A DNA stretch of 64,000 bases. It comes from Lama guanicoe. Its lineage: Eukaryota. The notes under the pieces were generated by a model. That model worked only from the letters and a program-made list of their open reading frames with translations. It ran no database searches and was not told where the DNA came from. A program made the position numbers and the translations under genes. Positions 16,901-49,169 of this stretch are shown piece by piece. The stretch lies in the NCBI GenBank assembly GCA_013239625.1, contig MU057073.1, positions 1,101,426 through 1,165,425 of the forward strand. Direction: 5' to 3'. Numbering within the stretch: the first letter of the stretch is position 1; every line of letters starts with the position of its first letter.

Positions 16901-19900
16901 GGGGTCCCACCCATGCCCTCAGCCCCACCCTCCAACAGAGACCAGGCAAAGGGGCTCCTGCAGTCAGATCCCGACCCTTAGTCCCCAGGAGTCCTGGCTG
17001 ACCTGATCCACACTGAGACCAGCACATGTGCCTGGGACCCCCACCCATGTCTCCACCACAGTCTCCCAGGCTCCCTGCCACCCGTGGAGCCGTTAGGTAG
17101 GCCTGGGCTTCAGTCACCCCACCCGGACCTGGGGGAAGGAAGCAGGGCCCCTCCATCTCTCGATCGCCCTCCCTGCACCCGCTCAGACACCCTCAGCCTC
17201 ATCCCAGGGTCGCCCCAAGTCAGGGTAGGGCCTACCTTTCCGGTGCTGCTGGAGTTGTCCTTGGTCTTCGAGGCGGCCCTGAGCAGGCAGGGGGGCACGG
17301 GGGGCGGCCACAGCTGCAGGACCCCGCTGAAGTCCGTGGGGTAGATGGAGGCTCCGCGGGTGGTAGGGGGTGGTGGGGGGTGGGGCTTCCTGGGCTTGGA
17401 GGCCAGGCTGAGCTTCTGGGCCGCCCTGGGGAGGGGAGGAGCAGGGGGGCGCACTCAGAGAGGTCCTGCCACCTGCCCTCCCCCAAATGCAGCTGTGCAG
17501 TCTGCACTTCACTTCCCGCAGCCAAGTAGGGGCACCCAGGCTGGGGCTGCCACATGCAGGCCAGGCGACAAGGGGCCCAGGCAGACACCAGACCCCAGGG
17601 CTATGCCCTTCCCTGCACCCTGCACTGAGGACATCCTCCTCCCACCAATGTCTACCTGCCCCATGTCCCCCACCCAGCAGCCAGGGCAGGACAGCACATT
17701 CTGAGGTCTGTCTCTCACAGGCTGTGTGACCCAGGCATGGTGACTTAGTCTCTCTGTGCCTCGGTTTCCTCATCTCTAACATAGGATGACCTGGCCACCA
17801 GAGGCCCTCGTGTGCGGCCCTGATGAGCTAATACATTCAAGACACCCAGTGCAGGCCTCCAGCACAGGTGACACTAATAGTTAAGAACACACAGCGGGCC
17901 TGGGTCCACACCTGGGCTCTAGCCACTGTGCGCAGACTTCAGCCCCTGCCCGACTTCCCAGTGAAAGGGGCTGGAGTCCAGGACAGGTGTCAGCTCAGAG
18001 CTGGAAGCACCTGCCCACCAGCCAGGGTGGCCCCTCCCACCAGTCGTGCGGCGCCCACTCCCCCTTCTCCCAAGCCCCTCAGGCCTATTTTCTCCTCCTC
18101 AACAGGACCTCAAGAGAAGGGCCTGCACCCGCCAGGGCCGCGCAGCCCCCTCAGCCCACCTCCCACTTGGCAAGAGCTACCGCCGGCGTTTTGCTTAACT
18201 CCTCTCATCTTTAATAGGAGTTGTCTTTTAAGAGACCCCAGGGACGGCTTCCCTCCTAGCGAGGTGTCATCATGGAAAATAAAAGTAATCTATGGTGTGG
18301 GGCGGACCCTTAAGGGAGCAGTGGCGGCGGCTGGTGCGTGGCCAGCGGGGCGGGGGGCACAGAGAGGGCACAAGGGTCCCATGAGTGGAACCCACAAGCT
18401 GCCCAGACCCCTGGAGCCGGGGACCCTAAGCCAGGATCATGGGTCCCCCGGCCACTAGCAGATGCTACCCTGGTTCCTGCCTGAGCCCACCTGCCTGAGT
18501 GGACTTTGTAAACCTGAAACCTCCTTGCTCCCTGGCCCCAGGATCACACAGCAGGCAGGATGGGGCTGACAGCGTCACCCAGCCACAGGGTGAAAGGTTT
18601 GGCCCAGGGAGCTCTGCCGCACCAAGTCGCAGCAAGGCCATCTTAGGGGCCTGGGGAGACTCAGGCTGGGGGCCGGGGGAGCTGGGGCCGTTTTATCAGA
18701 GCCTCAGCTCCTGGGGCTCCCCCCACCCACCCCACCCCTAGCCTCGGCCTGCTGCCCTGGGTTACATCACAGCTTCCTGCCAACCACCCCCATGGGAAGC
18801 AACTACAAGCAGACTTAGAGGACGTCAGAGTCCAGCAGGCAGCCGCAACCCCACTGCCCTGCACTGCCCAGGGCTGGAGCCGCCAGGGAGGGCAGAGCGC
18901 CTCGGGGATAACCTGGCGGGGCGGGCTGTGGCGGGCACAACCAGGACAGCTGTGCCTGTGAAAGTGGAGGAGGTCCTGTGGACGCTCCCATTTCTACGTG
19001 GTGCAGTGGTGCTGCTCCCAGGACTCGGAGAAGGACAGCACACTGGGCTGCCTCACACCAGCCTGCTCTGCAGAGTGCAGGCCAGGCCCTCAGGGTGACC
19101 GGATAGTCAGCAGACAGTCATGGCCGAGGCGTGCCCCACCCCGGAGGGCTCCCTGCTCCTCCCTAGGCTGGGCGGGGCCACCCCGGGAGGTGGAGGCTGG
19201 GGGTGAGGGGACCTGAACCACAACCCCCAAGGCTCAAGAGGACTCAGAGGCCAAGAGGACCTGTGGCCAATGGAGAAGGAGTTGGGGGAGGCCAGGGGGA
19301 CACCAGGCTGCAGAAGCCACAATCAGAGGGTCACACATGCAGCCGCAGACCCTCCCAGGAGCCAGTTTCCAGCACAGTCCTCACCCCATCCTCCCGTCAC
19401 CCTCAGGGCCCCAGCAGCGGAGTATGGGGAGGTGTCCTTCCCCCCAGACACGCCCAGGTCTAGCCTGGACAGGAGCTAGGACCAGAGCCTCTGAGGTCCC
19501 GCCAACCCAGGAGGCTGGAATGTTACTGGCCATGGTCTGACCTAACCCAGGGTGACCCCGCCTCCCTTCCTGGCCCAGGCTCAGCCCCTGTGGGACCCGG
19601 AGCTGAGAAGCTGCGCCCGGCCTGCCCAGCCCTCCAGGTCTCTGTGCTCACAGGCCTGCCTCACGGCATGACTCAAAGGCCCCAGGACAGTGCTCTGTCC
19701 TTTGATGAAATCCAGGCCCTCCAACACCAGGACCAGCCCATCAGCCACCCACCACTGCAGCTCAGCCCACACCGCCTGCAGGGGCGCTCCGGGCCGGCCC
19801 GCCCTGAAGGGCCCAGCCTTCTGGGAGCACAGACCTGGTTTCTGAGCAGTGGGGATGGGGAGGAAGTGACACCGGGCTTCACAGAGGCTCAGAGAACACA

Positions 19901-22900
19901 CAGGCACCACCCTCAGGACCAGACACCCACTGCATTGTTGGGGAGCTGGCGGGGGGGGGGTCAAGGCGGGACCTGCAGGGGGAGTGTGGGAGAATCTGAG
20001 TGCTCCGGCTCTGAAGGGAAGACTTGAAGAAGCAGGCACTTCACCTGCACACACAGCTCTCCTCACGCTCTGTGAACATCTCCCCTGGGAAGCCCGCCCG
20101 ATGCCCCCACGCGGGGCTTCCCCAGACCCTGTGCCTCCCGCTACCACAGGAAGCACTCCCTGTCCTGAGACACAGGTTTACAAGGCTGTGCCCCCACCGG
20201 GCGGGGGCTCCAGAGGGCAGACGTTTGCCGAGCCCAGGCCCAGGACACAGGGGCACTCAGGAGGAGGCCGTGGGCGAATGAGTGACCGGCTCCCCCACCG
20301 GCCGCTCCCTGTCCTCCCAGGGGCCTCTCCCCGGCTCACTGGCCCTGGTCACTGATTCACAGAAACAGAAGGGGAAATATTTGCCATTTTACAAAGAAAG
20401 ACGGCCTTTTCCAAACAAGATGGTCATTTCACAGGCAGTTGGCCTTGATGGTAAGGCCCTTAATTACCCCGAGGAGACACACAGGCCCGTTTGGATGTGT
20501 TGGGGGGTCAGTTACACCAACCCAGGGTTTCCTAACTGGGCGGCGATGAGGCTGGTGGACTGGGCCACAAGCCACGCCCCTATCCCCACCCTGAGGAGCT
20601 GTAACCCCCAGGCCCTGAGATCCCCCAGGATCTGCCCATCAGGGTCCAGAAGGCAGGGCTGCTAAGGAGGCCTAGACCCCCAAGGCCAAGGCCCAAGGTC
20701 CCAGCAGCCCTGACCCTTGCCCCTTGCCCCTTGCCCCCTGCCATGGCCAGCATTTTCCACATCACCAGGGAACAGGCTATGCGGCTTCCTCGGCCCCACC
20801 CTGCCAGGGAGGGCCCCCTCTCCACAGAGCCCCCCTACCCATGTGCCTCTGGGCAGCACCCACTGTGGTTCTGGGCCTCTGCTGGGTGCCTGGCATCAGG
20901 GCAGATGGGGGGCAGGGGATCCACAGAGGCTGCAATGCAGCGGGCAGGTGGGGGGTGCCCACGAGTGCAGGGGGTATCCTGGCACCCAAAGGAAACCCCA
21001 GCGCTCCCCCGACCCTGTGCCTGCCGAGCAGACCCTCAACATTGCTCCGAGACCATGCAGATTCAGGGGTCCAGGAGGTGACCCCTCCGCAAAGAAAGGC
21101 CCAGAAGGGCAGGCAGGAGAGCGAGCTAATGGAGGCATCTGGGGGAGGGGAGAGGGGAGACTGCAGAAACAGGAAGGATGGGGGAGTGGGAGGACGCGGG
21201 AAGGGGGAGTCAAGGTCGCCAGAGCCTCCTGAGAAAACGTAATTACAGCAGCGGCCCGGCCTTTCCAGGACTCTGGTAGGGGCTGGCACACTGCTGCCGC
21301 TGCCACGCCCTAGCTGCCCACCCAGACCCAGCAAAAGGGCGCGGGGCGCTGGGCCTTACTCCCCTGCTCCACACCCCATGAGCGTTAGCAAGACCTTGGC
21401 CACCAAACCACACATGGAATCACTCCCTGCCCGGGCTGCCCCACACAGGGTGAGGAGCCGGGGGGTGCAGAAGGCTCAGGAAGGCCCAGGAAGGCCCGAG
21501 GCCGGTGCCAGACCACAGGGAATGCTCGGGGACCAGTGGAGAACCCAGCTTCTAACCTCGTCCTATTCTGCCTCCATCTGGCAAACACCAGACTCCTCCT
21601 CAACTCTCAAAGCGCAACTCCGTGTCCCACGGCCCTGAGGACAACACTGTTCTCTGCCCCTTCACAGATTCCACCCCCTTACACCCAGCTAACCAGAAAC
21701 TTCTGAGGGGCAGGCATGGGCGAGGGACAGCTTTACCCCCGGGTCCCTGGCAAGGGGTGGATCTGGGGACACAGAACATACACTCAGCTCACGCCTGAGA
21801 CCCTCCCTGCCCCGCACAGGATCCAGCAGCTCCACGTCTCTTGGGGACTCTGGACAAGCCCCTTCCCTCTCTGAGCCATAGCCTCTCCCCACAAAACACA
21901 GGAGTGGATGCACAGCTGAGAGCACCCAGATCCCACCCTGGTGGTTAAGGGTGCAACCGCCCCGAAGAGCAGAGGGTCTCGGGCCTAAATCAGGCACGTG
22001 CTCGGGACGGTGTTTCCGGCTGGAACACCCATCCCTCGAACGGCCTTTGACCCTTCAGGGAGCCGCTGTGATTCGGGGCGTCCAACAGGCTGGAAATAAT
22101 GGCAGCTGGCAGTGCAGCCCCCGTAAAACCTGCCTCCGCCGTCCCGGCCCCCGGCCCCGGCCGAAGCGCCTGTTCCTATGGTAACTTCCCAAGGGCAGCC
22201 GGGGCGGCCTTGCTCAGCTGGAACAAAAGGCAGCCCGGCTCCGGGGCCGCGGGGTCGCTAATGAGCCAGCGTGGCCCCCACGCGGGACCACAGGAGCTGG
22301 TCTTCCTCCTTCTCAGACGGTCTCAGGCTTGAAATCCTCCTGCAAGCACCACCTGATGGAGGGTGGCCAAGGCCGAAAGCCCCGAGGGAGAGACTAGCTG
22401 GGGCAGGACACTCCCAGATGCCAGGTGTGCCTGCCCTGGTCTCTTACACAGGGGCCCCTAGGCCCACAAGGTAGGCTCCCACCCACCCCACAGCCAGAGA
22501 ATCCCAGCCGGGCTCTCTGCGCCTAACTGGGGCAGTGAGCCCCCAGACAAGCTGACAAGGCACCCTGTCCCCACAGGGGCCGCTAATGGGACAGCGACCC
22601 GCGCCAGGCCCACCATCACCGCTCATTAACCCCCGTCACACCCTGTGATCCTCACACCATGGTGGGGGGAGCCCCGCCTCAGGTCCCCAGTACCCAAGGG
22701 CACTACAGGGAGGGGCTTGAGCCGGGGAAGAGACCCCCCCCCACTTCCCACCTCTGCACCTTGCTCACAGAGTTCCCTGCCTGACAGGCCTCACCAGCCA
22801 ACAGGTGCCTGCAGGGCCGTGGCTAGGCATCCCGGAGGCGTGGAGGGAGCAAACCCCAGGCTGCAGTCAGCCCCAGCCCCGGAGCTCCGGACTGAGACCA

Positions 22901-25900
22901 GGACCCACTCGGCCCCTGGCCGCCGGAGGAGCCAGATCTAACAGCCGTAAGGGTGGCCGTTAACAGGGAGTGTGCCCGCAGCACCCCCAGGGAGTGCAGC
23001 AGGTGGGCTCTGGGTGCAGCCTGCCCCCAGGACACCTTCCCTAGCTCACCCCCACCTCCTCAGGTGCCTAGGGATGCTCCCTCAGGCCAGTTCCACCCCG
23101 TGCTCCCCAACTGCAGGGGCATCTGCCCCAAGGCCTGCCGGCATCAACCCACCACCCCCACCAACGCTGGGCCAGCTTGCTCTCAGGACTCGGTGCACCG
23201 CACAGCATCTCGGAGGAAAGCGTCATCAGGAAACTGAGGCACAGAGAGGTTGCACGACCTGTCCGAGGCTGCACAGCTCCGAGGGGCAGATTCTGAGTTT
23301 GAACCCTATCCTCGACTGCACCTCCCTCTCAGGGCGAGCGGCCTTCCCTGGACAGTGCTGTGACGTGGTGCCCAGGGGAGGCCCGCCGCCACTGGGGCCA
23401 GGAGCTGAGGCCCGCAGGCCCCTCCTACTGTTCTTGTCCAAGCTGCCCCCGAGCCAGGCCCCACCCCGAGCCACCCTGCGCCGGAGGACGTACCTGAGGA
23501 AGAAGGAGGCTGCCGCCGACGGGCCCGAGGCGCCCCCCGCCGGGGCGCCGGGGACTGGAGTGACCAGGGCTGCAGTGCAGGCCCCACCGCGGCCCCACGT
23601 CTTTGGCACACCATCAGGTCCCACGGAAGGGGGGCCATCCCGCACTGTGTCTGCCACCGCCACCGCGGCCACCGCTGCTTCAGCCTGGAGGGAAGGAGGG
23701 GGCCTGCCTGAGCATCAGGCCTCAGCCGGGAGCTGGGGAGCAGACCTGCGCACCCCAGAGCCCAGTGAGCTCCCAGGGGCCCCTACTCATGGGACCCAGC
23801 CAGCTCGGGGAGGGAGGGCAGTCTGCCCCACGGGGCCCCGTGGGGGAGAGGTAGACACAGATGTCCGCCCAGGGACCTCACTTTCCAGCCCCTCCTCCTT
23901 CAACCTCCAGAAATGCAGTGACCCCAGTGACCCCAGTGGTTGGGACAGATGGACAGGGACCCCCACGCCCCTCACCGCTGGGCCACCCGCCTGCGAGCAC
24001 CCAGAGGCATGGTGACAGAAGGAACCAAAGCAAGTGTTTGCCACGAGCACTGACTGCCCCGTGCACGGTGATGTGTGATCCTCCCGCCAGCTGAAGTGCC
24101 CCACTGGCATCTCCAGCTAGTCAGCTAAAGTAAGTTCCAGAGGGAGACAGCCTCGTAATGAAGCACAAACGTAATTAAAGGCTCGCCCGGACGGCGCTGG
24201 CAAACTTGAGATCCGGCCACTGTGTATTTTATTTATGTGCACTTGTCAGGCCCTGGACCCCAAGGCCAGCCACAGCCCCAGGGGGGTGGGCATGGCCCCT
24301 GGCAGAGGAGGGAAGCAGCCTGCCTTAGCCCGGCCACCCCCAGCCCCATCCTCTTCCCCAAGCCGCCCAACCCCGGCCCCAGGCTTCAGGGCTCCCCAGG
24401 CACCTTGGCCCAGTCCCTGGGACTCCCAGCCCCACTCCACCCCGAGCACTGCTGACAACCACTGTCCAAGGTGTCCTCTGTGTCAGGCTGGATAAGGCCT
24501 GCGGTCCTCACGCTGACAGGACACGGGCCTCCAGTGACCCTGCAGGAGAGGAGCCCAGGAAGCAGCCACTCTGGAGGGCCCACCATCCTCAGGCTCTCCC
24601 AGGTGACACAGCCAGATGCCAGGGTGGCACTTCCACAGGCCCCAGGAGGAGCGTCTGGCAGGAGGCCTGCCAGCTCAGGGCAGCATCCCTCCCCACCGGG
24701 ATGGAGTCCCATCCCGCCCAGACTGTGGTCAGCACCAGCTCCCAGGCTCCCCGAGGGTCACAGCAATACCACGTCTGCAAAGGAAGCTCAAAGAGAGTCC
24801 CAAATCTTAGGCTGGATGGTAGCCAAGGACCCCCTACCTGGCCCTCTCTGCACCAGCATCTCCCCCAGGGCTGTGAGGAGGACAGGTCAGTGGCAGAGAA
24901 GGGCAAACCTGGAACAATCCAGGCCCTCACCAGGCACTGTGCCAGCACACCACGCCCTGCCACCTGCCTTACATTTGCCTATAGGGTAGGAACTCCTGTG
25001 CATCCCCCAGCACCCAGCCCAGCCAGGCCTCCCCTTCTCCAAGCCACTCCCTGGGCCTGCCCCAGGTGCCCTGCCCTGGCCTCCTCCAGCCCTGAGATCT
25101 CTCCCCGGCTTCACCTAGGCTACAACGTAGTGCTGCCCACCCCCAGAGTAACAGGGCCGTGCTTGACTTCTCAGCACCATATTCTCCTATCCCACCAGCT
25201 TGTGTGAGCACCTGGTGTGTGCCAGGAATCAGGAGGCCCCTGGCGGGTGCCTACCACACCTGCCTGGTCTCCCCATGCCTGGCACCTTGCCTTGGCAATG
25301 GTAGGTGTTCAGTATATCTGTCCTCCAGGGGCACAGTCTGAGACACAGGCATGAGACACACAGAGCCCACAGCCAGGAGGCAGGCTCTGCACCCAAGAGA
25401 AAGGGAGCTGCAGGATCAGAGGGGGCACCTGGTCACAGGGGCACTCCAGAGGGGGGTCAGGCAGGCCTAGGCCCGCGTGACGGGAACCGGATGCTGCTTC
25501 TCCTCCAGGCAAATGTGAGGATGTGGAGCAGCCAAGGACCCTGACGTCAGCCTCCCGACGTGGCCTGCCGTGCACAGGACCTGCGATGTTCCCTCACCTC
25601 AAACATCAACCCCTCTAACGCACATGCTCCCCAGGAGAGGTCTGACCTCCTTCGTTGAGCAGGGCAGTATAGGACATTTTAAAGTTGCGTCATCTGCAGG
25701 GCCTGAACTCCTCGGAGCAGAGCTGGGTTTGGCAGAGCACCCACCAGGCGAGGAGCACGGGCAGGGGCTCCCTAGGACCGAAGCGGGCTCACACCGCAGT
25801 GCTGGCACCCGCGCTGCCCCACCCAGCCCGTGACGGCTCTGCCGTGGGGCCCACCGCCAGCCCAGGCCAGCCCGTGAGCCCGCCCAGTGAGGCACCTGGA

Positions 25901-28900
25901 CAGCAGGGGACAGAGCTGGGGGCTCGCCCCACAGCCCCTCCGCCCACTCCCATGGGGCCTGAGCCATCCCACCGTCTCAGGCGGGCATCACTACCTCCAG
26001 CCAGAATGCTCCGGCACCACCAGCAACGGTGCAGGCCCCTCAGCACGCCTGCGGCCGGCCGCCCCCCGGGCACTGACCTGTCTCGGGGGTCCCGCACGCA
26101 CCTCGGCTCCGCCGTCCCACGAGCTGCCGAGACACGGCTCCGGCCATCGGGACGGCCGCTGCCGATTCCTGCCAGAAGCAGAGCCCAGGCATGCCAAAAG
26201 AAGCCAGGGGGGCGGGGGGGACGGCGAGAGGGAAGACCACAACACGGGGACAGAAGAGAGGGGGCGAGGGGAGGGCAGGCGGGCGGCCAAACAGAAAACG
26301 TGATGGAGGTGCCAGAGCAGCAACGAAAGAAAAGCATGAAGAGAGGAGAGCGTGAGGTGGGCCGCGCCACCGTCCCCGGGGAAGCCCCTGCCAGAGGCTC
26401 CTGACCTCAGCCGGTGCCCGGGGGGCCCAGAGTGGGCGCCAGGGTTCCACAGAGCATGGTTTGGGAAACACCAGACTAACCCATTTCTTAGGAACCCTCC
26501 GGGCCTGAATTCCACGTCTGAAAGATCCCGGCAGGTGAAGAACAGTGTCCACCTGCTCCTCGGGAGAAACACCTCACTGCGGGCTATTTCATGCCGAGAG
26601 GTGGGGGGGCCAGAAGGGGCAGGAGGCTGAGGGGTCTCACAGACACGGTCTCAGCCCTGCAGAGGGCATGGGGGGCATCGCTCAGGGGGCATGTGCCAGA
26701 CACCAGGGTCTCCTCGAAGCTCCGCCTAGTCCCCCAGAGGCCCCCAGGCCAGGAATGTCCTTCCCCTGCAGGCGCCAGTCACAGGAACAGCACCCCAGCA
26801 GCTCCCCTGAAGTGTGGCCATCCTCTCCTGAGGCCCAGAGGGGGCACCAACAGCGGGTCGGGTCAGAGAGACAGGCCAGAATACAAAGCTCCCTCCACCC
26901 CTGCCACGTCCCTGAGGACGGGTGGACACCCACCAGGGCCCCCGCCAGTGCTCACAGGAAGTGGGGGGGGCAGCAGGAGCAACATCCCCAAGCTGGTGTC
27001 ACCCAAACTCCATGGACAGACAGAAACCGTGGCTCCACCAAAATGACCTCACCTCCCACTCAAAGCAGCATGCAGCACCTCCTCCAGGAAGCCCTCCATC
27101 CTCCCTGTCCAGGCCGAGCCTCTGCTGCCGCAGACCCCATGGCAGGCTGGGAACCCTCTGCTCCAGGTCCTCCTCCCTGGACTGTGAGCCCTGAGACCCT
27201 GGGCAGGGCCTGGCCTGTGTCTGCACGACTAGGGAAGGTTTGCACAAGTCTCCACTCACCCAGACCTGGGGCAGCTCCTTTCACTGTTTCCCGCAGTCCC
27301 ATCCTCAGCTGCCCCAGGCTGTGCTACCTCTAGCCTACTGCGGGGTCAGGAGGACAAAGCCTTAATGTCATCTGTAAAGTGAGTGCAGGTGTCCTACGGA
27401 CATCTGACAGGCACCCTGTCGACCTGGGGGAGACACCACGGTTCACAGCTGTGTCCCCGTGAAGCAGGCGGAGGCAGAGCACCTGGGGTGGCCCCACGCT
27501 CTCAGGGCAGCCAGGGAGGGTGACAGGCCACAGTCCCACTCCCGTGGGCACCCACGTCCTCCATGGTGGCAGAGCCGCCTCTACCGGACAGTCTGGAAGG
27601 CAACCGCTCGACGGTCCCAGCTGGGACGCTTCCCCAGATACTCGGGAGGTGAATGACCCGGAAAGGGCCGAGCTCTGTGCTCCCGGACGGGGAAGTGGAC
27701 TGCGGCCTGAATTAGGCCAGGGCAGGCCGAGGGCTGCTCCACCCAGACACCAGGCTCTCTAGCTGGCCACGCCCACAGAAGGACCCACGGGGCCAGCTCC
27801 CAGCCAGAGCACCCGGAATGTTCCAGGCCCACGCCTCCCACCCCAGCAGCCCAGATCCATGCTCGCCTGGAAACAGTCACATGCCAGGCCCGCCAGGGGG
27901 CTGTGGTGGCGACTCGCAGCACGCCTCTCCAGAAGCGTGTCGTTCTAGGGCCTAACACGCAGTGTTCCCACATTCCAGGCCCGCCTCTAATGATCAACGG
28001 CCTGGTTCAGGGGAAACCACCTCATGTGGGTCCAAAAGTTCTATTTATGGTTTAAGTAATGTCTCCATCAATCGCCAGGACTGTTGTCTCATCATAGTCC
28101 ATCACCACCCGCCCGAACGCGATCAGTGCACATAAAACCAGGAGGGAGCCTTGAATGCTCACGTGTTATGGTGAGCTGGCAGCCAGTAGGGCTGCCCAGC
28201 AAAAGGCCCGTGACCCCACCAGGCACACAGAGGCAGACAGGCCACCAGCCTGTCCTCTCCAGCTCACACCCCTCTTCTGCCTCCCGGGACCCTCAGGGCC
28301 AAGACCAACCCCTCTCTCTACCTGGTGTCTAAGGCCCCCTGGCTATTCCCAGTGGCCTCCTGTGCCCCCATCACATCTCCCGCTGGGCCCACTGTCTCTG
28401 CCACTTCCCTCCAGGCCCGGCTCAATGCCACCTCCTCCAGGAAGCCGCCCAGCTCTCTAGAGCTGCCTCCTCACCTCTGCTTTCCCCCTTCCACCGACCC
28501 CGCAGGCGCATTCTTCCCAGGCAGCCCAGCTCTCAGGCCAGGAGGCACCACAGGACTGGCACAGCAGAGGCTGGCCTCCCCCTTCTTGGCCTCGCCCTAG
28601 GACTTAGCAAACAGAGGAGCTGGAAGCAGAAAAGCCACCCATAGGGTGCATTGTCACACCAGGTGGAGGCCAGGTCAGATCCAGAAGTTCTTCCCAGGGG
28701 TGCCCTGGGCACCCCAAGCTACTGAGGGTCGGGGAGGCTCCAAAGACAGGGCACCCTCAGAGGGGCCAGCCCCAGCAAGGCCACACTTGAGATGGCAACA
28801 TTCAGCCTGCAAACCACAGCCCCTTCAGAGGGGCCGGCAAGTCCAGAGGCGGGGGCGGGCCAGGGGACTCATGGGACTTTGCCGCAGCAGCTGGGGGCCC

Positions 28901-31900
28901 TCGCCGTGCCTCCACCCCCACAGCCCTCGGGCACAGAGACCACAGGAGAGGACTGCTGAGGCTCTATTTCCGAGACACTCACCGGGCAAGTTTGTGCAGC
29001 TGACTCTGCAGTGACTAGAAAGGCTTCCACGGCCATCTACCTATCTCTCTGCCCCGGGGCCCCACGGGGGACAGACGGCGCAGCAGGAGCTTCTCCAAGC
29101 AGCCACAAACGCCTGTGCAGCTCCACCGCTGGGTCCCACCTGGCCCAGTACCCTACCGCAGCTCTACCACCAGGGTCACACCTCCAGGGAGACCTACAGG
29201 GTTCATACCTCCAGGCCTCCACACAGACCCTTCCCTCCGCTTGGAGGGTCCTTTCTATTTCATTTGCCTGGAGAACCCTATGCTGGGCACTGCTAGGCCC
29301 TCAGCAAGCAGATGGGGGCAGCCGGGGGCACGAAACCCCAGGAGAAGGCATCCCTCAATCGTGCAAGAGCTTCTGGGGAAAGGTCCTACTGGGACCACCC
29401 CAGCACAGCTACCCCCACGCACCACCAAGCCAGAACCAACGCCCTCCAGTGTCCCAGGAAACCCCGCTCCAAAAACCCGTCCTCTCCTGACCCCCGACCC
29501 TGGTGCCCCTTCTCCTGGATGGAAAACTGGGGGACACAGGGGACACCTGGGAGAGACCCCCACCAGCAGAACTCTGTAAGCAGCAGGCACCGGGCGCCTG
29601 GCACCGGGCCCCAGCCCCACCCCCCAGAGCTCGTCTCAGACCGCCGGGCCCTGCCTGGGCACACCCAGCCCGGGTCCATGGCACCTCAGGACCCACCGGT
29701 GGCCAGAGCTGGCTCCACGGAGGCCATGCCACTGCTGTGGGTGACACTCTGGTAGGCCTGAGGAGGGGAGCCCTGGAGAGTGGGGAAGGCAGTCCGCAGT
29801 CACCTGGAAAGAGGTGGCTTCTGAGGGGCCAAGCCTGTGCAGGAGCGAGCACACAGTTCGCACCACCTGCGGGCCTCCCACTACATGCCAGGCTGTGTCA
29901 CTTGTCCACAGGGCAGGGCCATGTCACCCAGGTCTGCCTGTGCTCCGGGCAAGAGAGCCTGGCCAGGGAGGGACCAGGAGGAGATGTTCCCTCTACTCCA
30001 ACCCTGAGGATGAGGGTCTGATCTCATCCTGGGAGCCCACGGGGCCCTTGTGTCAGCCCACAGCACTTTCCGTGGTCTCCGAGTGGCCACAACCATCCTC
30101 ACCCACGTGCCTGTGCTGCGTGGCAGCAACGCTCCCAGGGACACGAGAGGACCCTGCCCACCAGCGACCTGGCAGGTGGACTTGACCTGGGCCTTAGGAG
30201 TGTCTGCAGCCCCCTTGCTTTAAGGGGAGCCATGCTGCAGGGCACCCATTGAGCTCAGTGGGTGCAGACGTGGACTCAGCATGTCCAGGGCACTCACCAG
30301 GCATGACGGCGGCAGGAAGCTGTTGACCCGCGAGACGCTCCACATGCCGTCCAGGCACTGCTGAGCTTGGATGGTGACCGTGCTCAGGGCCCCGCCCAAG
30401 CCAGCAGGCGCCACCGACACCTGGACACTGGGCCCGGACGGCCAGGCCAGCCCCTTTCTCCGGTCTGGTCCCACTCGGCCCGGCTGCCTCCCCACCAGGC
30501 CCGCCGGCGCTGGTACCTCCCTCAGGCTGGTGGCAGCGCCAGGGCTGGGGGGCGCGAGGCCGGAGCCTCCATGAGGGGCGTCCAGCTCTTCGCGGCTGGC
30601 AGGGGCCTGCAGCAGCCGCAGGGCCTCCCGCGTGAGCTGGTTCAGGTGTGTGGCACAGACGTCACAGCGGCGCTCAGCCTCCGGGTGACACGCAGGCAGA
30701 GCCCCAGGTGCCGGCAACTTGTCGAGAAGCAGAGCAGAGAGACATGGATCCTGGGAGGACAAGGGACAGAGGTGGTCAGTGCCCGGGCACCAGGACCCAC
30801 CCCCCTCCCTGACGCTGGGCCGGCCCACACAGCGGCCACTACGTAATCCAGAACTGGTTAATATGCCCCAAACGGTGTCATCTGCAGGCACCCAGCAGGA
30901 AAAGAGCCACTGGGGCTTAACAGGGAGGCCCGCAGTGCCCTGGACAACTGCCCCCCTCCTCCAGCCACCATTCCCGTGCTTGCCTGCGGCCAATAAGGCA
31001 TCCATCTGCACGGCCCCCAGCAACTGGGCCACAGCAGCCAGGCCACATGGCCAAGCAGCAGCCCAGGAGCTGGCGGAAGGGGCCCATCTATGGTGGGCTG
31101 AGGGCCCCAGTTGAAAGCAACGTCGCTTCCAAAGCCCGTAATGGGGGGCTGGCGGGCTGGAGACCCTCTCCCTGCCTTTGCGGCGTCTCCAGCCCTGGTC
31201 GGGATTGGGAGGAAATGTAAACGGACCCCCAGGAGCCAGGCTGTGTGATAGGACTGCAGGGGTGAGCAGGTGGCCCAGGTCCACAGGAAGACGGAGGCCC
31301 GAGCACAGCTGGCGGGAGGCAGGAGGCAAGTCTCAATGGCCCCCACACTCCGCTGCAGACATGGAGTTGGCTGCTGGGGCCTATGCTGCCTGGTGGAGGC
31401 CCCTGCAGCCCACCCCCCTGCCCTGTACTGAGGGGGACACGGGGTCTCCGTAACCATGAGCCTGCTGTCTTAAGAGGGCTAAGAACAGAAGCCAAGAGGT
31501 CCAGGAGGGATTCCTGGAAGAGGGGACACCTCTAGAAAAAAAGGGGAGGCAGAGGGAACCAATCCTCAGAAGGAACCTCACTGGAGGGAAGCTATCAAAA
31601 GTCACATTCCCAGGGCCCATCCCCTACCCTCAACCCCAACAACAGGCTCTGCCTCAGCCCCTCCCCTGGCAGCCCCTCAGCATACTTGCCCTTTCCCGAG
31701 GGCAAGCCCAAACTACAGATGCTTGGCCAGGACACCCCCTTGACGGAGCAGCGGCCCATCCTGGACTTGCCACAAATCCTCCCTCCCCAGCCACAAAGCA
31801 TCCCCTGCTCAATGGCTGGCCACACTGGCCCCAAAGGACACTGGGCACATCCAGATGCCCTGCTGGCCACAAAAGGGACTGCAACCTCCCCAAACGCATC

Positions 31901-40900: not shown

Positions 40901-43900
40901 CACACACCTGTGGAAGGGGTACAAAGTGGTCCCCAGTACAGAAAGGGAAACTGAGGCCACAAGTTTTCATAAGCCAGCACGGAGTCCCGCAGCCGGAGCT
41001 GTCTGCCCCGGGGGGACGGCAGGCATCAGGCGCCGGCAGAGTGCCTGGGGCTGGCTGAAGACCGCTGTCCTCCACCCTCTCAAGCCTCCCTCTACACCTG
41101 AGACCAGGAAGAGACCCGGGAGGCAGAGGCCCCTAGGCCATCCTCACCTTGAGCCGTGGAGCCCAGCGGGCCACCTCCCTTCCCAGCCTCCCCAGATGCC
41201 ACAAGCAGGAGACCAAGTGAGGTGACAGCAGCAAAGTTCTCTGTAAACTGTGGGGTGCTGACCCCACGAAGCTCATCTCCTCATGGTAAGAAACAAGCAA
41301 GGGCCCCCGGGGAAAACTCTAGAACACAGACTCTACACTCCAGTGGCCTGTCAGCCTCAGAGCAGAGCCCAGTGCCCCTGGACCATGGGCCAGACTGCCG
41401 GGAGCACCCACTGGGGCTCACCCAGAGCCGGTCACACACGGGGGCCTCCTGGCTGCCTCAGCGAGCTCTCCCTCCCAAAGCAGAAGCAGCTGTGTGTGCA
41501 CATCCTGGGTACCACCTCCCCAGCCTTCCTTGATAGGATCTATGGGGCAGGCCGGCAGGTGAGGCTGTAGGCTGTGTGCCAATCAGCCAGGATGCTGGCG
41601 AAAGCCTGGGTATCATAGAACAATGAGGCCCATCAAGGTCCCAGGATTGCAGGCCCAACCACTGATGATGTCCCATGGCCCAGATGGCTCAGCCCAAGGG
41701 CCTGAAGCCCCCTGGGCCCATTTCCATTCTCTGGAGAAACAGTGGATGAAGGGGCCTTCCCTCCCTCCCTCAGGCACAGCACCCTACAGGTTGGACAGCG
41801 CCCCCTAGAGGCTACCCCCAACTGACAAAGGAGGAAACAGAGCCGGGGAGAGGGCCAAAGCAAGGAACAAGGCATGAGACCCTCGTCTGCTGGGTGAGCA
41901 GGCCACTGCGTGACAGGGATGGCTGGGCAGGGGGTGAGCCTTCACCTGGCACTGAGGGGTACCCAGTGTCAAACGTCAAATTCCGGGGAGGCCAGGAGAG
42001 GTGGGTGGTGAGCACCGCAGGTGGTCCCGGGGCTTCCCTGATGAGCTGTCTGCAGGCAGAGACCATTGAGGCCTCCCAGATGAGGGCCCCCGAATCCACC
42101 AGCGACTGGTGTGACCTGCAGCTCTCTCCACCCAGCTCCCCTGTCCACCTGGTGGCCAGCCGGCCACATGTCCAGCACCACCAGGCAAAGCCCAGCTCAG
42201 TCACTAAAGCCCTCCTCTCTGGCCTCACTTTCCCCCAGTGGGGTAGCAAAAGCTCTGAACCAAAACACCCTTTTCTGGGGCCCTCCTGGTGCCTTTTCAA
42301 CCAGATTCAAGCCATCTGCGGCACAGAGCTAGGCAAAGCTGCCCCCTGCTCAGAGAGCAGATGTGGGAGGGTCCAGCCCCACCCCAGGACAGGCCACAGG
42401 TCCTCTCCCCTGAACGCAGAGAGGAGGTGCCCAGAACACAAACTGGACTCACATGACCTCCCCACACCCCGCCCTGCCAGACACAGGGAACACCGTGGGA
42501 CCCCAGGAGGCCAGGGTCTGGCCCAGACCGCATGGCCTCCTTGGAGAACTATATTTAGATTCAATGGGGATTATTCGGACTTCCCAGGAATGCTTTCAGA
42601 AAGACTGAAGGTCAGGCGGGAAGGGCTTCCTCTGGAGACCCCCACCTTCCCAGGCTTTGCAAACTTCCAGGGAGCATTGTTCCCGGAACAATGGTCCCAG
42701 CTCCTCCCAAGCCCAGGGCAAGCCCACTGGCTGGAGAGTTCAGCAGAGCCCCCTCCCCAGGCAAACACCTTGCTGCTGGTGCTTAGAGCCTGGGGAACCC
42801 AGAGGCCCAGTCACTCAGTTCCCAGATGGGCAGCCACTGCCAGAATGGCAAAGCTCCAAGCTGTATCCCACACACAACTCTCATCTGTGAAGCAGGAGGT
42901 GGAGGGAAGGGGCTCCCCTCACAGTAGCTGGCCCACCCGCTGGCCTTTCCAGCCCTCCTGCCCCAGGTGTGCAGTCTCCAGACACTTGGCTGGGGACCCA
43001 GGTGCCCCAAGGGCGACATCGCACCAGGTAACCTCTTGCTGCTGGCAAAGCAGGAGCGGTCCCTCCCAGGGCGGGGTCCCTGCCCCCTCCCTCTCCCTTC
43101 CCTCCCAAAGCAGACAGTGGTTCCAGCTGTAGGACATCTGCAGCAGAAACACCCGCCCAACCCTGCTCCAATCAGACCTTGGGACCCTCTTAGGGTAAAA
43201 TGCCCCGATTCACACAAGGTGTCGCAAATGGGGAAACCGAGGCCCAGAGAAGGGAAGGGATTGGCCAGAAATCCTTGGAACCTCGCCTCCTTCCAGATCC
43301 CAAGGTCTCCTAAGTTCCAGCATGGGCCTCTGTCCCACGGCTGCCTGAGGAAGGGTCACTTACCCGGAGGGATGTCCCGGGCCCGCTGACCAGCTTCCAC
43401 GCTTGTCGCTTGAGCTCGGCGAGCTTCGTGTGGCAGTGGCGGCACCAGCCGCCTCCACCGGCCGAATGGCCCTGCTCTGCGCCTGCCCCGGCGCCCTCGG
43501 GCGCAGGGCGGCTGCCGCAGGGGTCCTGTTCTGGCCCGGCGGTCAGCCTCTTGCGGGGTGACCCCTCCAGCAGCCGCAGCGGCTCGCGGGCCGGGCCGCC
43601 CTCGGCTACCTGCGGGGGGTGGGGCGGAAAGGGACCGTGAGCCTGAGCCACTGGGCGGCGCCACCCAGGGACCCAGCACCGGTGCCTCCAGACCTCAGAG
43701 CGACCCAGCACCAGAGTGACGCAATCGACAAAGTTAAGAGCGCTGGGCGCGAACCAGCCGCCCACCTTCTTCTTCCATCCCAGGTCTCGATTAGGTCCCC
43801 TACCCCAGCAGGAGGCTCGGCGCCACCCGCGCTCCGCTACAGGACGGGCCCCCAGGGCTCTGTGCATCCTCTGTGTCCCGGGCTCTGTCCCGGGCGGCCC

Positions 43901-43989
43901 GGCGGCTCCCAGCCGCCCGCCTCCCTCTCGGGCCCGGCCGCGCGTACCGCGGGTTGCGCCGCGCACAGGGTAGCGCCACGGCTGCCCAT
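4743..43989 (-). CDS. KIF26A: Kinesin-like protein KIF26A (kinesin-11 family), full multi-exon CDS span
   Basis: Exon translations match recalled KIF26A ([91 protein letters not shown]). All introns are GT-AG with consistent phases. Total is 5541 nt (1846 aa) after removing the 209-nt duplication in exon 12, or 1853 aa with the microexon. Confidence 0.98.
5130..5280 (-). CDS. KIF26A: KIF26A exon 14 ([16 protein letters not shown]...GRWLEQ), coiled coil
   Basis: Acceptor CAG|GGC, donor T|GTGAGT, 151 nt. Confidence 0.95.
5606..5626 (-). CDS. KIF26A: KIF26A candidate 21-nt cassette microexon (PSQDPEK)
   Basis: Branch-like CTGAC, pyrimidine tract, CACAG acceptor, donor AAG|GTAGGA; phase 0/0 and frame-preserving. 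Confidence 0.72.
5750..5949 (-). CDS. KIF26A: KIF26A exon 13 (GLQRRRLIP...REDPAE)
   Basis: Acceptor CAG|GT, donor GAG|GTCAGG, 200 nt; contains [18 protein letters not shown]. Confidence 0.94.
6821..9835 (-). CDS. KIF26A: KIF26A exon 12 (large low-complexity exon); contains a 209-nt frameshifting tandem duplication as assembled
   Basis: Acceptor CAG|TGC, donor G|GTGGGT. The ORF 7142..10000 matches KIF26A, and the frame continues in ORF 6762..7145. 3015-209=2806 nt restores the phase-1 end that exon 13 needs. Confidence 0.93.
6962..7378. repeat. Tandem duplication of 208 bp (6962-7169 / 7171-7378) inside exon 12
   Basis: The only difference I found is 6984 g versus 7193 c; a single extra A sits at 7170. 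Confidence 0.95.
10517..10679 (-). CDS. KIF26A: KIF26A exon 11 ([12 protein letters not shown]...RLRRKKVK), end of motor domain
   Basis: Acceptor CAG|G, donor AAG|GTTAGT, 163 nt. Confidence 0.95.
11001..11163 (-). CDS. KIF26A: KIF26A exon 10 ([17 protein letters not shown]...KHVPYR)
   Basis: Acceptor CAG|TG, donor CAG|GTGAGT, 163 nt; switch II DLGSCE and HVPYR. Confidence 0.96.
11275..11458 (-). CDS. KIF26A: KIF26A exon 9 (LQNQSELR...EKCGKGG)
   Basis: Acceptor CAG|CTC, donor A|GTAGGT, 184 nt; switch I region. Confidence 0.95.
11597..11859 (-). CDS. KIF26A: KIF26A exon 8 ([10 protein letters not shown]...DPVCGAQ)
   Basis: Acceptor CAG|GC, donor CAG|GTACGC, 263 nt. Confidence 0.96.
12146..12239 (-). 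CDS. KIF26A: KIF26A exon 7 ([31 protein letters not shown])
   Basis: Acceptor TAG|GCC, donor G|GTAAGT, 94 nt; first half of the P-loop. Not in the ORF track, translated by hand. Confidence 0.95.
12687..13191. repeat. Tandem duplication (12687-12928 / 12930-13191) covering the 3' part of exon 6 and the start of intron 6
   Basis: Near-identical copies that differ by a 21-nt and a 1-nt indel; a single extra A sits at 12929. Confidence 0.93.
13119..13331 (-). CDS. KIF26A: KIF26A exon 6, start of motor domain (VKVMLRIW...FPQDSEQ)
   Basis: Acceptor CAG|GTG, donor CAG|GTGAGG, 213 nt. Confidence 0.96.
14714..14770 (-). CDS. KIF26A: Candidate internal alternative first coding exon of KIF26A ([19 protein letters not shown])
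   Basis: ATG at 14770 (GGCGCTATG), 19 codons, donor CTG|GTAACT in phase 0 matching exon 6; lies in a compositionally distinct CpG-containing block in intron 5. Confidence 0.5.
17236..17425 (-). CDS. KIF26A: KIF26A exon 5 (AAQKLSLAS...SSSTGK)
   Basis: Acceptor CAG|G, donor AAG|GTAGGC, 190 nt; contains [15 protein letters not shown]. Confidence 0.95.
17720..17880 (+). mobile_element. MIR SINE fragment
   Basis: gctgtgtgacc...gtgacttagtctctctgtgcctcggtttcctcatctctaa, the MIR core. Confidence 0.7.
23494..23684 (-). CDS. KIF26A: KIF26A exon 4 ([10 protein letters not shown]...ASFFLR)
   Basis: Acceptor CAG|GCT, donor CAG|GTACGT, 191 nt, ends in phase 2. Confidence 0.95.
30298..30750 (-). CDS. KIF26A: KIF26A exon 3 (DPCLSALL...FLPPSCL)
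   Basis: Acceptor CAG|GAT, donor CTG|GTGAGT, 453 nt; contains RCDVCATHL. Confidence 0.96.
39543..39800 (-). mobile_element. L2 LINE 3' fragment
   Basis: cattcagtcattcaacaaacattt is the typical reverse complement of an L2 3' tail. Confidence 0.5.
41796..41814 (-). promoter_or_regulatory. CTCF motif
   Basis: Minus strand TAGCCTCTAGGGGGCGCTG. Confidence 0.6.
43364..43609 (-). CDS. KIF26A: KIF26A exon 2 (VAEGGPARE...SGPGTSLR)
   Basis: Acceptor CAG|GTA, donor CGG|GTAAGT, 246 nt; contains the WCRHC motif. Confidence 0.96.
43948..43989 (-). CDS. KIF26A: KIF26A coding exon 1 ([14 protein letters not shown])
   Basis: ATG at 43989, 42 nt, donor GCG|GTACGC, phase 0, inside a CpG island; resembles the recalled human N-terminus MVGRGVPLCAAQPA. 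Confidence 0.92.
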
Positions 43990-44215
43990 GGCCAGGACGT
44001 GGGAAGGACTTGGCGGTCGCTTCGGGGCCACTCGGGCTCTCCGGGGCGCCGTGGCTACGTGATCCTGTCCGGGGACGCCCCCATGACCCGGCCGGCCACT
44101 CCGAAGTTCGCGGCCCGGACGAGCGGCAGAGACCGCGCGGCGGTGGCGGCGGCGGCGGCGGCGGTCGGTCGGTCGCGCTGGGAGGCGAGGGCGGGGCCGG
44201 GGCGGGGCCGGGGAC

Positions 44216-44228
44216 NNNNNNNNNNNNN
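44216..44228. other. Assembly gap (13 N) in the KIF26A GC-box promoter
   Basis: N run. Confidence 1.
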
Positions 44229-45072
44229 ACTCCGGGGGCGGGGCGGGGGCGGGGCTCCGGAGGGCTGTCGGGACCCGCCCAAGCCCTCGCTCAGCAGTGC
44301 TTGGGGGAGGGTGTCCTGCTTTTCCCCGTGGCTCCACCCACTCCGAGGCCCCCAACCTGTTAGGCGAGTCCCAGCGCAAGAGAGGAGCGCTGGGGGCCAC
44401 GGTGAGAGAACCGGTACACGCGCGCGCATGCGCTTTCCTGCTCCGCTCCTGGGACTCTGGGACCTCCCGGGACATACCAACCCACTCCTCACTTTACAGG
44501 AGAGAAAACTAAGACCGCAGAGTGGAAGGTCTTTCCCAAGGTCACACAACAAAGTGGAAGGAAGAAGGGGCTGAACCCCAGCCCCTAGACTCCCAGTCGC
44601 TTTTTCCTGCAAATCCAGCGCACTCTGCGTGTCGCTGGCCACCTTTTGGGTCTGTCCCGCGCGGGTGAGTGTCGCCATGGTCTGCGCCTCGGAACGTGCG
44701 GTGCCTGCTCCAGTGTTTCTGTGTCTAAGCGTGTCTGCAAACGGCACGCGTGTCTCTGTAGCCGCGCGTGTGCATGATGTTGGGTGTGCGCGCTGTGCGC
44801 GGGGGAAGCGGAAGGAGGTGGCCCTGAGGGTGTGCGGGGGACCTGTTGTCAGCCAACCTGGCAGATGGGAACTTAGCTTCGGAATTAATTGCCTGTTTGT
44901 CTCAGGCTGGGAGGTCGCCTCCCTTCTCCGGCGACCAGTTGCTCCCGCTCCAGTCCAACTCTTAAGAGTTGCCGTTATCCAAGGCGGCAGGCGGCTCCCG
45001 GTCCCAGCTCTGGGTCAGCCTGAAACCCGAGGTTGGGCTCAGCGGGCGCGGCCGCCCGGCTTCTCGTGACGC

Positions 45073-45091
45073 GAGCGCCCCCTTCTGGCTG
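45073..45091 (-). promoter_or_regulatory. CTCF-like motif
   Basis: Minus strand CAGCCAGAAGGGGGCGCTC. Confidence 0.45.
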
Positions 45092-46186
45092 TCGCTCACC
45101 CGCGGCCGCGAGGCTCTGGAGAGACCCGGCACCGCCGTCCGGGGCGAACAGGCGCGCCCGAGAGACTTAGGAGGAGCGAAGCCAGAGCAGAGGCGGCTGG
45201 CGGGCGCAGTCCAGGCGGAGACCCGGGCCAGCGGATCCTCGGCCGCAGTGAGACCCTCACCCAGATTCGAGCAGCTCCCCGCCGCTCCTGAGCCCCTCAA
45301 AGCGATCCCTTCTTTATGTTTTGCCCACCCTCCCTTTCACTAGGAAGGTCCTCTCCACACACGCAGCACCTCTCCAAAAAGAGAGGACTGGGGGTGATCC
45401 TCCCGTCTTGGCTTTCCGAGTCGTTTATGGCATGCAGCGTGCGTCGGGGTAGCAAAAAGTGGGCAGAGGCTCCCCCCACTCTCACTCCACGATCCCACAT
45501 CTTCCAGACCCTTTCCACCCGGCCCGGGGGCCGGAAGCTCTTCGCCTTTCCTACCTCACCTCAGCTTCCTAAAGGAAAACGGGCGTCAGCCCCCATCTGG
45601 ATCTCAGTACCGCGGGACACCACAGCCCCCGCCTTTCAACTGCTCTGGGACTCACCCACACAATTTCCCACTTGCACCCCTAGAAACACATTGGCGCCAG
45701 GAGCCGGGGTCCTATGCCCCGGGCCGGCCACACCCGCAACTTCGTTGGTCCGCACCGCTGAGACACTATAGGAAGCACACGCTCACACCCGACACCCCAA
45801 TTCCTGGAGGCGGCCGGGACACAGCCCTGCAGAACCTAGAGGTGCAGGCGGGACTCGAACACCTCAGGACTCAGGATCAGCCAGGAGGCCCCAGACCCCC
45901 TGCCTCGCCCACCCCGGGAAGACGCGCGGTGGGACTCAGAGTCCCGGCGCTGCACTGTCCGCCCTAGCTGACGGTCCCCCGCTCAGGATGCAGCATTGAG
46001 GGGATAGCGAGATGGGGCAGCACTAACGGGGAAGTGCGGCAGCGAGTCCCCGACCCGGCCTGCGGGACGCGGCTCCGGACCTGCTGCCTCTTTTCCCGGC
46101 GCCGCACCCAGAGACGCAGGAGCCGCGCGGCAAAGTCGTGGGACAGCGCCTCTGTCGCCAGCCGGGTCTCGCCGCCCGGCCCTCAC

Positions 46187-46324
46187 CTTGGCTCGCCGCC
46201 GCAGGAGGTGGCTAGTGAAGCCCAGGATGATCTCCGAGTCCAAGCAGAGCGCCCCCATCTCCAGCAGGCTGGGCGCCTTGCGGGGCGCGCCGCGGGGCGG
46301 CTCGGGCGGCCCGGGCAGAGCCAT
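46187..46324 (-). CDS. KIF26A: Candidate upstream alternative first coding exon of KIF26A (MALPGPPEPPRGAPRKAPSLLEMGALCLDSEIILGFTSHLLRRRAK)
   Basis: ATG at 46324, 46 codons, strong donor AAG|GTGAGG in phase 0 matching exon 2; non-low-complexity peptide inside a CpG island. Confidence 0.65.
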
Positions 46325-49169
46325 CGAGGAGCGGAGCGCGGGGAGCGGCGCCGAGCTCCTCCCGCCGCCGTCGCCGCCACCTCCCCCCCCCCGCGCTCAC
46401 TGGCCGCGCGCCCGACGCCGCCGCGCCCCGCACGACGCGCTCCGGCCCCGCCCGCCCGCGCAGACAGCGCCCCCTCTGCCCGCGTGGCGAGCCAGACTCC
46501 CGGACACGCGGACCTGAGGAGGAGGGGCGGGGGGCGAGGACCCCACCCGCCGTGGGGCGGAGGATGGGGGCCAGGACCTGACCTAGGTCCTCACCCGTCT
46601 GCCTCGCGCGCCTCCTACCGGGTGCTCCCTCCCGGAAGCACAGAGAGGGGGCTGCGACGCTGAGCGAGGTTCCGGGAAACCCCTGCAGATAGGGGACCTA
46701 TCGCAGCATCTCCCCATCCAATCCGTCCTGGGGACTCTTGCGCCTTGGGGTCCCAGTCCCTGGAGAAGTATAGGCAGCCCAGTGACCTTGCGCTGCCCGC
46801 TCTGCTCATGCTCAGAGAGCCCCTGTCTGTAGCGCCTCCTTGGAAGCACCCCATCCCACACCCAGGCCTCGGCCTATCAACTCCCAGGGCCCACCCACCG
46901 GGACCCCAGAGCGCCTCCACTCAGGACCCGGATTCCACCGCCACCTGCAACCTTCTCTGCCTCTGACCCAGACCCCTCTAGCCGCTCCTGGAACTCCCTG
47001 CGGGCAGGAGGATCCCTGCTGTTCTCCAGACACGACCAAATTTCAGTGTCTGTGGCGCGGCGTTTGAGGAGGAGGGAGTGGGCTCTATCTGTATACAAAC
47101 TCAGGCCTGGGCACCGCGCTCCTACTCGGCGCAGCCCCAGTCTTGCAGCCTAGCGGGCACCCTTTGGAGGCGCAGGCCCCGAGGTTGCACGACTGCCTGG
47201 GAAGGGTGGAGCCCAGAGACAGGATAGCCTAAATAGCCTAGGCCCAGGGGGAGGTCTTTGGTAATTAGGGGGGTGTATTAGGGACCACTGTGGGGGTGAG
47301 GGAGGACCTTGAACAGCACCTGGAAAGTAAGCAAGCAAAGAAGGAAGACTGAAGCAGCGAGGACCTGGAGGTCACAGCGCTGGGCCCCTTCAGAGGTGCA
47401 GGCGCGCAGTTGCTATAACATCACAGCTGGGCTGGAGTCTAGGGCAGGACCAGCTCAGCAGGCCCCTCTGCCCCCTGGGAAGGACCATGGAATCTCCCTA
47501 CGCCCCACTCTTACGTGGGGTGGGTGACCCTCCTGCTCCCCAGGGTTCCTCCCCGGCACTCCAAGTGGCAGCTGGAAGACATTGTCTCCTCCTGCTTGCA
47601 CCCAACGGGCTCATCATAAACACCTTACCTGCAGGCCACAGGGCTGCCCATTCCCACCACTCTGCCCCACCCAGAACTTCCGATCAAGAGGGACACCCTG
47701 GGAGGAGCTTCCTGCTTCCCTGTCCCCACATTCACCGCTGGCCTGGGTCAGCGATAAGGGCAAGCCATAAGGCGGGGTCAGAGTGCCCCCGCTGCACCCC
47801 CCAGACCCCTTCTCTGGGCTCCAGGAAGCCACATTGGGAACGCCCGGCTCTCCTCCCTCCCCCATGGGCAGGCACTGGGGTGACTGTCCTGTCCCCCACC
47901 TCCTCCAAGACTCTGAGCCTGGGCAGGGGGGGCTCCCTCCAGTGGAGGAGGTCGCCGCCATCTCAGTGGATTGATTAAAGTCATCGTGCTTTTTTTTAAC
48001 ATTTAATTTACCAAGCATGCCACGGCCAGTCAGAGCTGTCCCTGGGGAAATCTAGGCCAAGGGAGCAAAACAGAAAAACCCCGGCAATTGAGCAGGGCTG
48101 CGACAGGATTAATTGCTGGACTCAGCTTCCAATCAGACCCCATGTGGCCATATTTCAGGAAGGTAGGAGGACCCCCGGTGGAGTGGTCAGATTCCTGCAT
48201 GAGGCATGGGGAGCCCTGAGCCCCCATAACACCTCTCACCCTGACCCACTGGGGACATGGGAACATCCCCCCCCAGCTCCATATGCAGCCCACCTACAGC
48301 CAGGAAGGGGCCAAATCCTGTCAGCCAGCAATTTGAGACCTGAGAAGGCACCCTGACGTGCTCCCATGGTGCACTTTGGGGGAAATGAATACCTTGCAGC
48401 AGTCTCTGTGGTGATGGGAAACTGGAGCAGCAGGGAAATGAACAGCAAACCCTAACACCCGATCCTTGGCAACCGTGGACACAGGTGAAAAGCCAGGGCT
48501 CCTGGGAAGATACCCAGACACAGTGTGCAGCACGGTCAGGTTTGCATTTCTAAAGAACATTTATGCCCGTAAAGCCTGGATCTTTCCTGGGAGAGATGCA
48601 ACAGACAGGTAAGAGTTGTTATTTCTGGGGAGAGGAGAGAGTGGGTCCACTCTCTACCCCTCCATGTGGTTTTCACTTTTGCAGGGTTTTTAACCCCGAG
48701 TTTTCACATTTCATAAAGACATCAGGAAGGGTTGGAATGCCTAAGTTGCCAGGGGTGAAATGTTCAAACTAGGACCACACTCAGCATGGAGCAGACCCTC
48801 CCTCCCCATCATGGGTGGAATGGGGGAGAGAAAGAAACATTACCCCTTCACCTTAAGGGGACTTGGGACCCTCCCAACTTCCCCAAGTGAGGTCAGCTCA
48901 CCAAGCTTCTCGCTCAGCACCCCTCCAGGAGTCAGGGCTCATGTCTGGGGTGGAAGAAGGACGCTTTAGGAGGGAAGCCAGTGATGCCAGCCCAGCCATG
49001 TCCACGAGGAAAGCCCACCTCGGCTGAGGGCAGGGTCTCCTGGCCAGGCCACACCCCTCCTCCTCCTTACTTCTGAGAGCAGGTTTCAAGTGGAGAAAAT
49101 ATCGTAGTTAAGACAGTTCTCCCTCCTAGAGGGGCTGAGTGCTGGGGGAGGGCAGGTCCTATCTGTTGG

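Follow-up and report, generated by a model that had tools for sequence, protein, structure and literature searches.

The KIF26A gene of the window (the whole stretch of 64,000 nucleotides that was analysed) has an upstream alternative first exon that is almost certainly real and used here: a distal GC-box promoter would drive it, and an intron of 2577 nt would be spliced out between it and exon 2. It is reasonably probable that the whole reading holds, namely that this is a conserved alternative first exon with its own promoter and that it encodes a predicted partner-docking helix. The exon is not hidden, as it is already machine-annotated; hence, the novelty implied by an earlier sequence-only reading of this DNA does not stand, the predicted annotation of many species having it already.

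The distal exon is an ATG open reading frame of 138 nt (Table 1). It is stop-free up to its donor, its phase matches that of exon 2 and the in-silico joins of either first exon to exon 2 are stop-free, which bears out the in-frame splice proposed from the letters alone. With an approximate donor matrix, the distal donor ranks 1st and that of the proximal exon 1 ranks 23rd among the 194 GT sites of 47500-43620. The short exon 1 has its ATG 2198 nt downstream of the distal donor, in agreement with the 2.2 kb claimed for the distance to the canonical exon 1, from which the intron to exon 2 measures 338 nt. An in-frame stop is found at 46399 and there is no ATG between 46709 and Met1, so the distal frame cannot reach far upstream. 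In RNA runs, 25-39% of the sampled words were present, a listing at the level of words and not of junctions.

Table 1. Features of the KIF26A locus in the window
Feature	Position	Strand	Evidence or remark
GC-rich upstream stretch, presumed 5' UTR and TATA-less promoter	46325..46600	-	GC boxes
Distal first exon of KIF26A, coding part	46187..46324	-	46 codons, phase 0
Near-invariant core, residues 29-43	46196..46240	-	Inside predicted helix 20-45
Distal splice donor AAG|GTGAGG	46181..46189	-	Top matrix rank; V-R/V-S/V-C read-throughs
Proximal reference-type exon 1, coding part	43948..43989	-	14 codons, phase 0
Common exon 2	43364..43609	-	246 nt, tblastn
Other KIF26A coding exons (rest of the PF23081 domain, kinesin motor-like domain, tail)	4746..30753	-	tblastn of P0017, P0019, P0023; Pfam
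CpG island over both first exons and exon 2	43201..46800	.	CpG o/e

A tblastn search placed the exons of KIF26A between 46324 and 4746. In exon 2, 73 of 82 residues are identical to the bat model P0017; its RPxPEGA motif (P0017 residues 80-86) and CxxC pair (residues 102-105) are the same in all of 34 aligned sequences, with counterparts in KIF26B, and from these residues the PF23081 domain may bind zinc. In exon 5, at about 17395-17385 (-), SKPRK is found here where orthologues have the basic cluster SKRKK. A further 25 codons at 12927-12853 (-) match the 3' end of the exon before them (80-84%), which suggests a partial exon duplication within the intron. Upstream of KIF26A, a mir-203 precursor is located at 57982-58061 (-) (Rfam RF00696, 98.7 bits).

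Many gene models carry the distal exon. The first search retrieved 31 proteins among 78 candidates, including KIF26A isoforms X1 and X2, and residues 1-46 of the predicted isoforms P0016-P0019 are identical to the distal-exon peptide. Identity reaches 100% over the 46 residues for KIF26A models of mustelids, a bat and the raccoon dog: XP_059039271.1 (Mustela lutreola X1), XP_066198292.1 (Saccopteryx leptura X1) and XP_055159941.1 (Nyctereutes X1) all join 46/46 identical residues to the same exon 2. The same first exon opens XP_060244238.1 (Meriones X2), XP_073494736.1 (Phyllobates X3), XP_014041977.1 (Salmo salar X2) and XP_009465489.1 (Nipponia), but the last model skips exon 2. These predicted isoforms show no structural difference from the window; they are automated models for which no function is described, and all supporting records are predictions (XP_ records and assembly annotations). 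Both first-exon forms are modelled in one species for Mustela lutreola, Saccopteryx, Meriones, Octodon and Lycaon. Of the 66 long mammalian records examined, the distal exon opens 23, the short exon 28 and neither of them 15, a split that is uninformative on abundance because the clusters were picked for the distal start. Since both exons are modelled on exon 2 and the distal one has coding-type conservation to shark, an alternative first exon that swaps the N-terminus of KIF26A, as had been proposed, is supported. In some models, the distal peptide is found on unrelated read-through sequence (P0010, P0032, P0036 and P0117). P0010, a hyena 'collagen-like' model that starts with the distal exon, and P0117, a ptarmigan asparaginase-domain model fused to it, are likely annotation errors.

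Searches across vertebrates found coding-type conservation of the peptide from mammals back to shark. A search of representatives gave 34 matches at E<=0.001, including two that were judged unrelated repeats (P0041 and P0046). A 12-sequence profile gave 78 matches among 7987 scored candidates of 82-2000 aa, most of them at E<1e-15, which on these scores is far past chance expectation. They come from mammals, birds, a turtle, three frogs, a newt, many teleosts and a sawshark (P0145), and many further matches are unnamed read-through ORFs. The jawed-vertebrate span is about 450 million years. A single-sequence search of proteins of 1026-3268 aa returned 12 matches among 27 candidates, all of mammalian KIF26A type. 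Orthologues of the exon are also present in rodents, and no named primate or marsupial is among the matches. The sawshark record is named KIF26B. However, over the exons that follow it shares 68% identity with turtle KIF26A and 65% with bird KIF26A against 45% with the KIF26B of this genome, a level to be read knowing that some amphibian and teleost KIF26A score 43-46%, as low as KIF26B. It also lacks the Ser/Gly insert of KIF26B in exon 2 (spacer of 26 aa against 76). Given the turtle and bird identities and the missing insert, P0145 is likely KIF26A and its name likely an annotation error.

The conservation stops where the exon stops. Of the 116 collected proteins that have the motif, exon-2-like sequence follows in 62, a later exon in 4 and something else in 50. 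These 50 are mostly intron read-through, and 44 of them continue V-R, V-S or V-C, which is what read-through of a kept GT donor gives. For 18 read-through ORFs of mammal type, identity to the window falls from 0.96 in the exon to 0.51 in the 30 codons that follow; it is 0.52 over the 20 upstream codons in the 10 of these 18 that are long enough. At the protein level, coding-type conservation is thus limited to the exon and ends at Met1 and at the donor. Amino-acid exchanges across vertebrates are conservative, and 59 of the 63 distinct orthologous peptides are 45 or 46 aa long. In metagenome contigs, 83 pattern matches were obtained as candidate orthologous DNA for dN/dS and none was confirmed.

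We infer that translation of the distal exon starts at Met1, which is kept in all 63 peptides. The sequence-only reading had drawn attention to an internal Met (Met23) in a strong Kozak context. This context is indeed better than that of Met1 (G at -3 and +4), but the residue is Met in 16/63 peptides only, all of mammalian type, and L, I, F or V elsewhere, and an internal-Met start is rejected. As the Met1 context is weak (T at -3), leaky scanning to Met23 is possible in mammals.

The distal exon does not lie in a CpG island of its own, as had been stated. Taken in 400-nt steps over 43201-46800, CpG o/e never leaves the range of 0.63 to 1.0 and peaks at each of the two first exons; therefore, a separate island is rejected and there is a single long one with two peaks, common to exon 1. 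GC boxes are located at 46560, 46530 and 46457 upstream of the distal exon, and neither TATA nor CCAAT was found in 46700-46325. Furthermore, codons 19-46 have 65% GC, against 83% upstream and 71% downstream. The GC dip noticed earlier is thus real, but its attribution to AT-rich codon usage is rejected: since GC3 is 0.93 and GC2 is 0.43, the dip comes from the amino acids encoded. Located at second codon positions, it is a coding signature and not an unusual codon choice.

It had also been suggested that KIF26A may have three promoters, one of them in intron 5. A third promoter is unsupported in the window. Several teleost models (P0149, P0150, P0155, P0162 and P0180) have, immediately upstream of the exon-5 equivalent, a third start inside the gene, and with it the N-terminal region is lost as a whole; teleosts thus have several starts. 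In the window, a search before exon 5 gave no counterpart (best ungapped score 18, no fitting donor). A candidate in intron 5 is a phase-0 ORF of 19 codons at 14770-14714 (-) with a moderate donor, for which no match was found in the N-terminal 700 residues of the collected proteins over 300 aa, nor any second genomic copy. It lies within a patch at 14400-15600 (-) that is AT-richer and CpG-richer (GC 0.53-0.57, o/e 0.62-0.75) and resembles a regulatory element.

Human KIF26A NM_015656 is taken here to start with the short exon 1. Within the same gene, the two N-terminal tips differ in conservation: identity to the window is 36-71% for the short one across six mammalian model variants and 87-100% for the distal one in the 18 mammal-type ORFs. 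In the sequences compared, the distal exon is thus shown to be better conserved than short exon 1. As in dual-promoter alternative first exons, there are two phase-matched exons, one CpG island and a common exon 2; unlike in that class, the non-reference exon is here much the better conserved one. The pattern of short exon 1 has no match among the collected non-mammalian proteins, a sample that was itself selected by the distal motif and in which amphibians are represented by 'X3' isoforms; short starts of another kind are seen in two teleost models. That the distal exon is the ancestral KIF26A start of jawed vertebrates, with a KIF26A-specific docking motif, and that the 14-aa tip is later or degenerate, is a tentative proposal that we hold to be rather doubtful.

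The paralogue KIF26B has the PF23081 and motor-like domains in common with KIF26A. However, no counterpart of the distal exon was found there. In 140 kb around exons 1-2 of KIF26B (locus G000:C8876, including about 6.5 kb of N), a profile of the 63 peptides has no match (best E about 8), and over this region, the window and other loci its single match is the exon of the window. A search of the same genome with the single peptide gave the window itself and four matches at E 0.7-8.4. A paralogous exon in KIF26B is therefore rejected, by profile at exons 1-2 and by single sequence genome-wide.

The peptide has a variable, Pro/Gly/Ser-rich beginning (residues 1-17), then a kept hydrophobic pattern (18-28) and a near-invariant core (29-43). 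The 63 peptides, from which four matches were excluded (two models that break at the end of the exon and two unrelated), were cut out by a pattern requiring G35, F36, H39 and L40, so invariance at these positions is partly built in; in an independent alignment of 34 sequences, D29, G35, F36, T37, H39, L40 and R43 are fixed. Polar and small residues (D29, G35, T37, S38, H39 and R43) are among those that are invariant or nearly so, and a specific binding surface therefore fits better than a generic targeting signal. AlphaFold2 predicts a helix over residues 20-45, with pLDDT of 83-91 over residues 21-46, short peptides being readily drawn as helices. In a model of the 419-aa turtle N-terminus, this helix has a pLDDT of about 53 amid low-confidence sequence, apart from the PF23081 helices at about 80-93; hence, packing on the PF23081 domain is not indicated. 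The helix is moderately amphipathic (hydrophobic moment of about 0.47 over residues 32-42) and followed by a basic tail. Of the hydrophobic or amphipathic helix with a basic tail described earlier, the predicted helix and the tail are thus retained and the amphipathic character holds moderately, but hydrophobicity of a membrane span does not: the best 19-residue hydropathy is 1.25 (0.74-1.33 over four peptides), against a threshold of about 1.6, and a signal anchor or membrane span is rejected on this ground. An Elongin BC box ([STP]Lxxx[CSA]xxx-hydrophobic) is found in 0/63 peptides and is likewise rejected. For the peptide, no Pfam family, PDB-sequence relative or Atlas match was found, and Foldseek gave no match at E<=0.001 with either model.

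Other functions of the tip have to be weighed. If the exon is real and its tip is a localisation signal, which we find unlikely, residues 20-28 would act as a leucine-rich nuclear export signal, or the helix with its basic tail would bind membranes or microtubules. Export-type hydrophobic spacing from residue 20 is seen in 60/63 peptides, but also in 33% of shuffled cores, and the best-conserved part lies beyond residues 20-28, with polar residues that such signals do not need. Conservation of the basic tail would suit membrane or microtubule binding; Cys, however, is present in about half of the peptides only (31/63) and hydropathy remains below membrane-span level. The available text of PMC13085882 reports KIF26A in cytoplasm and nucleus, with a nuclear shift after chemoradiotherapy, which is in line with a localisation signal.

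Auto-regulation, in which the helix would fold back on its own protein, at the motor-like domain or the tail, or on another KIF26A chain, is improbable: the 419-aa model indicates no packing on the adjacent N-terminal domains, and KIF26B has a related motor yet no such exon in the 140 kb around its exons 1-2. Its merits are that auto-inhibition by terminal segments is common in kinesins and that, among the named matches, the peptide is carried by KIF26A-linked proteins only. A calmodulin-binding segment that gives the long isoform calcium sensitivity is quite improbable. The 1-5-10 and 1-8-14 spacings followed by basic residues occur in register in 59/63 and 63/63 peptides, the 1-8-14 count assuming Val as first exon 2 residue, but about 63% of shuffled cores match each of them, the core has no IQ motif, and the matches listed in a literature search (titles and abstract starts) include no KIF26-calmodulin binding. 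Complex prediction of P0017 residues 12-56 with an intronless calmodulin copy of this genome and calcium gave a score of 0.02, which weighs neither way. An intronless open calmodulin copy of 149 aa, probably a retrocopy, is located at L026:1255-1704 (+). Lastly, the peptide attached to unrelated read-through in P0010, P0032, P0036 and P0117 could mean that the exon is unused here, or that a conserved regulatory element or stand-alone micropeptide was joined to KIF26A by predictors. This is extremely improbable given the stop-free frame to the donor, the phase match, the conservation ending at Met1 and donor, the conservative exchanges, the GC3 of 0.93 and the 62/116 proteins joined to exon-2-like sequence.

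A docking site that folds on binding fits best, because the helix is isolated and constrained, with fixed polar residues, in a flexible region; we lean slightly towards docking on one specific partner protein. Two isoforms would then arise: a long one that carries the docking helix, from the distal GC-box promoter, and a short one with a 14-residue tip and no such helix, from the proximal promoter. The helix would fold on binding, and a flexible linker would connect it to the PF23081 domain. In cells using the distal promoter, the non-motile KIF26A would be tethered or regulated by a partner outside the N-terminal region.

KIF26A, a gene of the brain and of gut nerves, encodes a non-motile kinesin whose loss leads to brain malformations and intestinal pseudo-obstruction, according to the available text of PMC10585591 and PMC11608842. 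In the same partial texts, the expression plasmids and variant calls of PMC10585591 are based on NM_015656.1, two NCBI transcript variants being named there without description, and PMC11608842 also uses the reference-type NM_015656. Likewise, the accessible part of PMC7832431 maps a promoter within -1978/-15 of the annotated start. One reference transcript is the basis of the KIF26A papers, as far as their available text goes. In titles and abstract starts, nothing was found on KIF26A first exons or a long isoform. The word 'isoform' is absent from the available text of PMC5590807, 10.64898/2026.05.20.726728, PMC10585591, PMC7832431, PMC12783630, PMC13085882, PMC11608842 and PMC5924538. KIF26 is absent from the main text of 10.64898/2025.12.16.693263, as available, and KIF26A does not occur in nine of the supplementary files of PMC6886504, a PhyloCSF exon catalogue.

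Alternative first exons are a common class of gene structure and this one is already in automated annotation. Nevertheless, it is an ancient alternative first exon with an uncharacterised motif, and possibly an unscreened coding exon in a disease gene. If the reading is true and humans keep the exon, the cloned reference protein would be devoid of a functional module, and screening of patients with brain malformations or gut pseudo-obstruction due to KIF26A would overlook variants of the exon. Moreover, a stretch of 15 residues that is nearly unchanged across jawed vertebrates and absent from KIF26B and from the short isoform may provide a handle on what makes KIF26A distinct.
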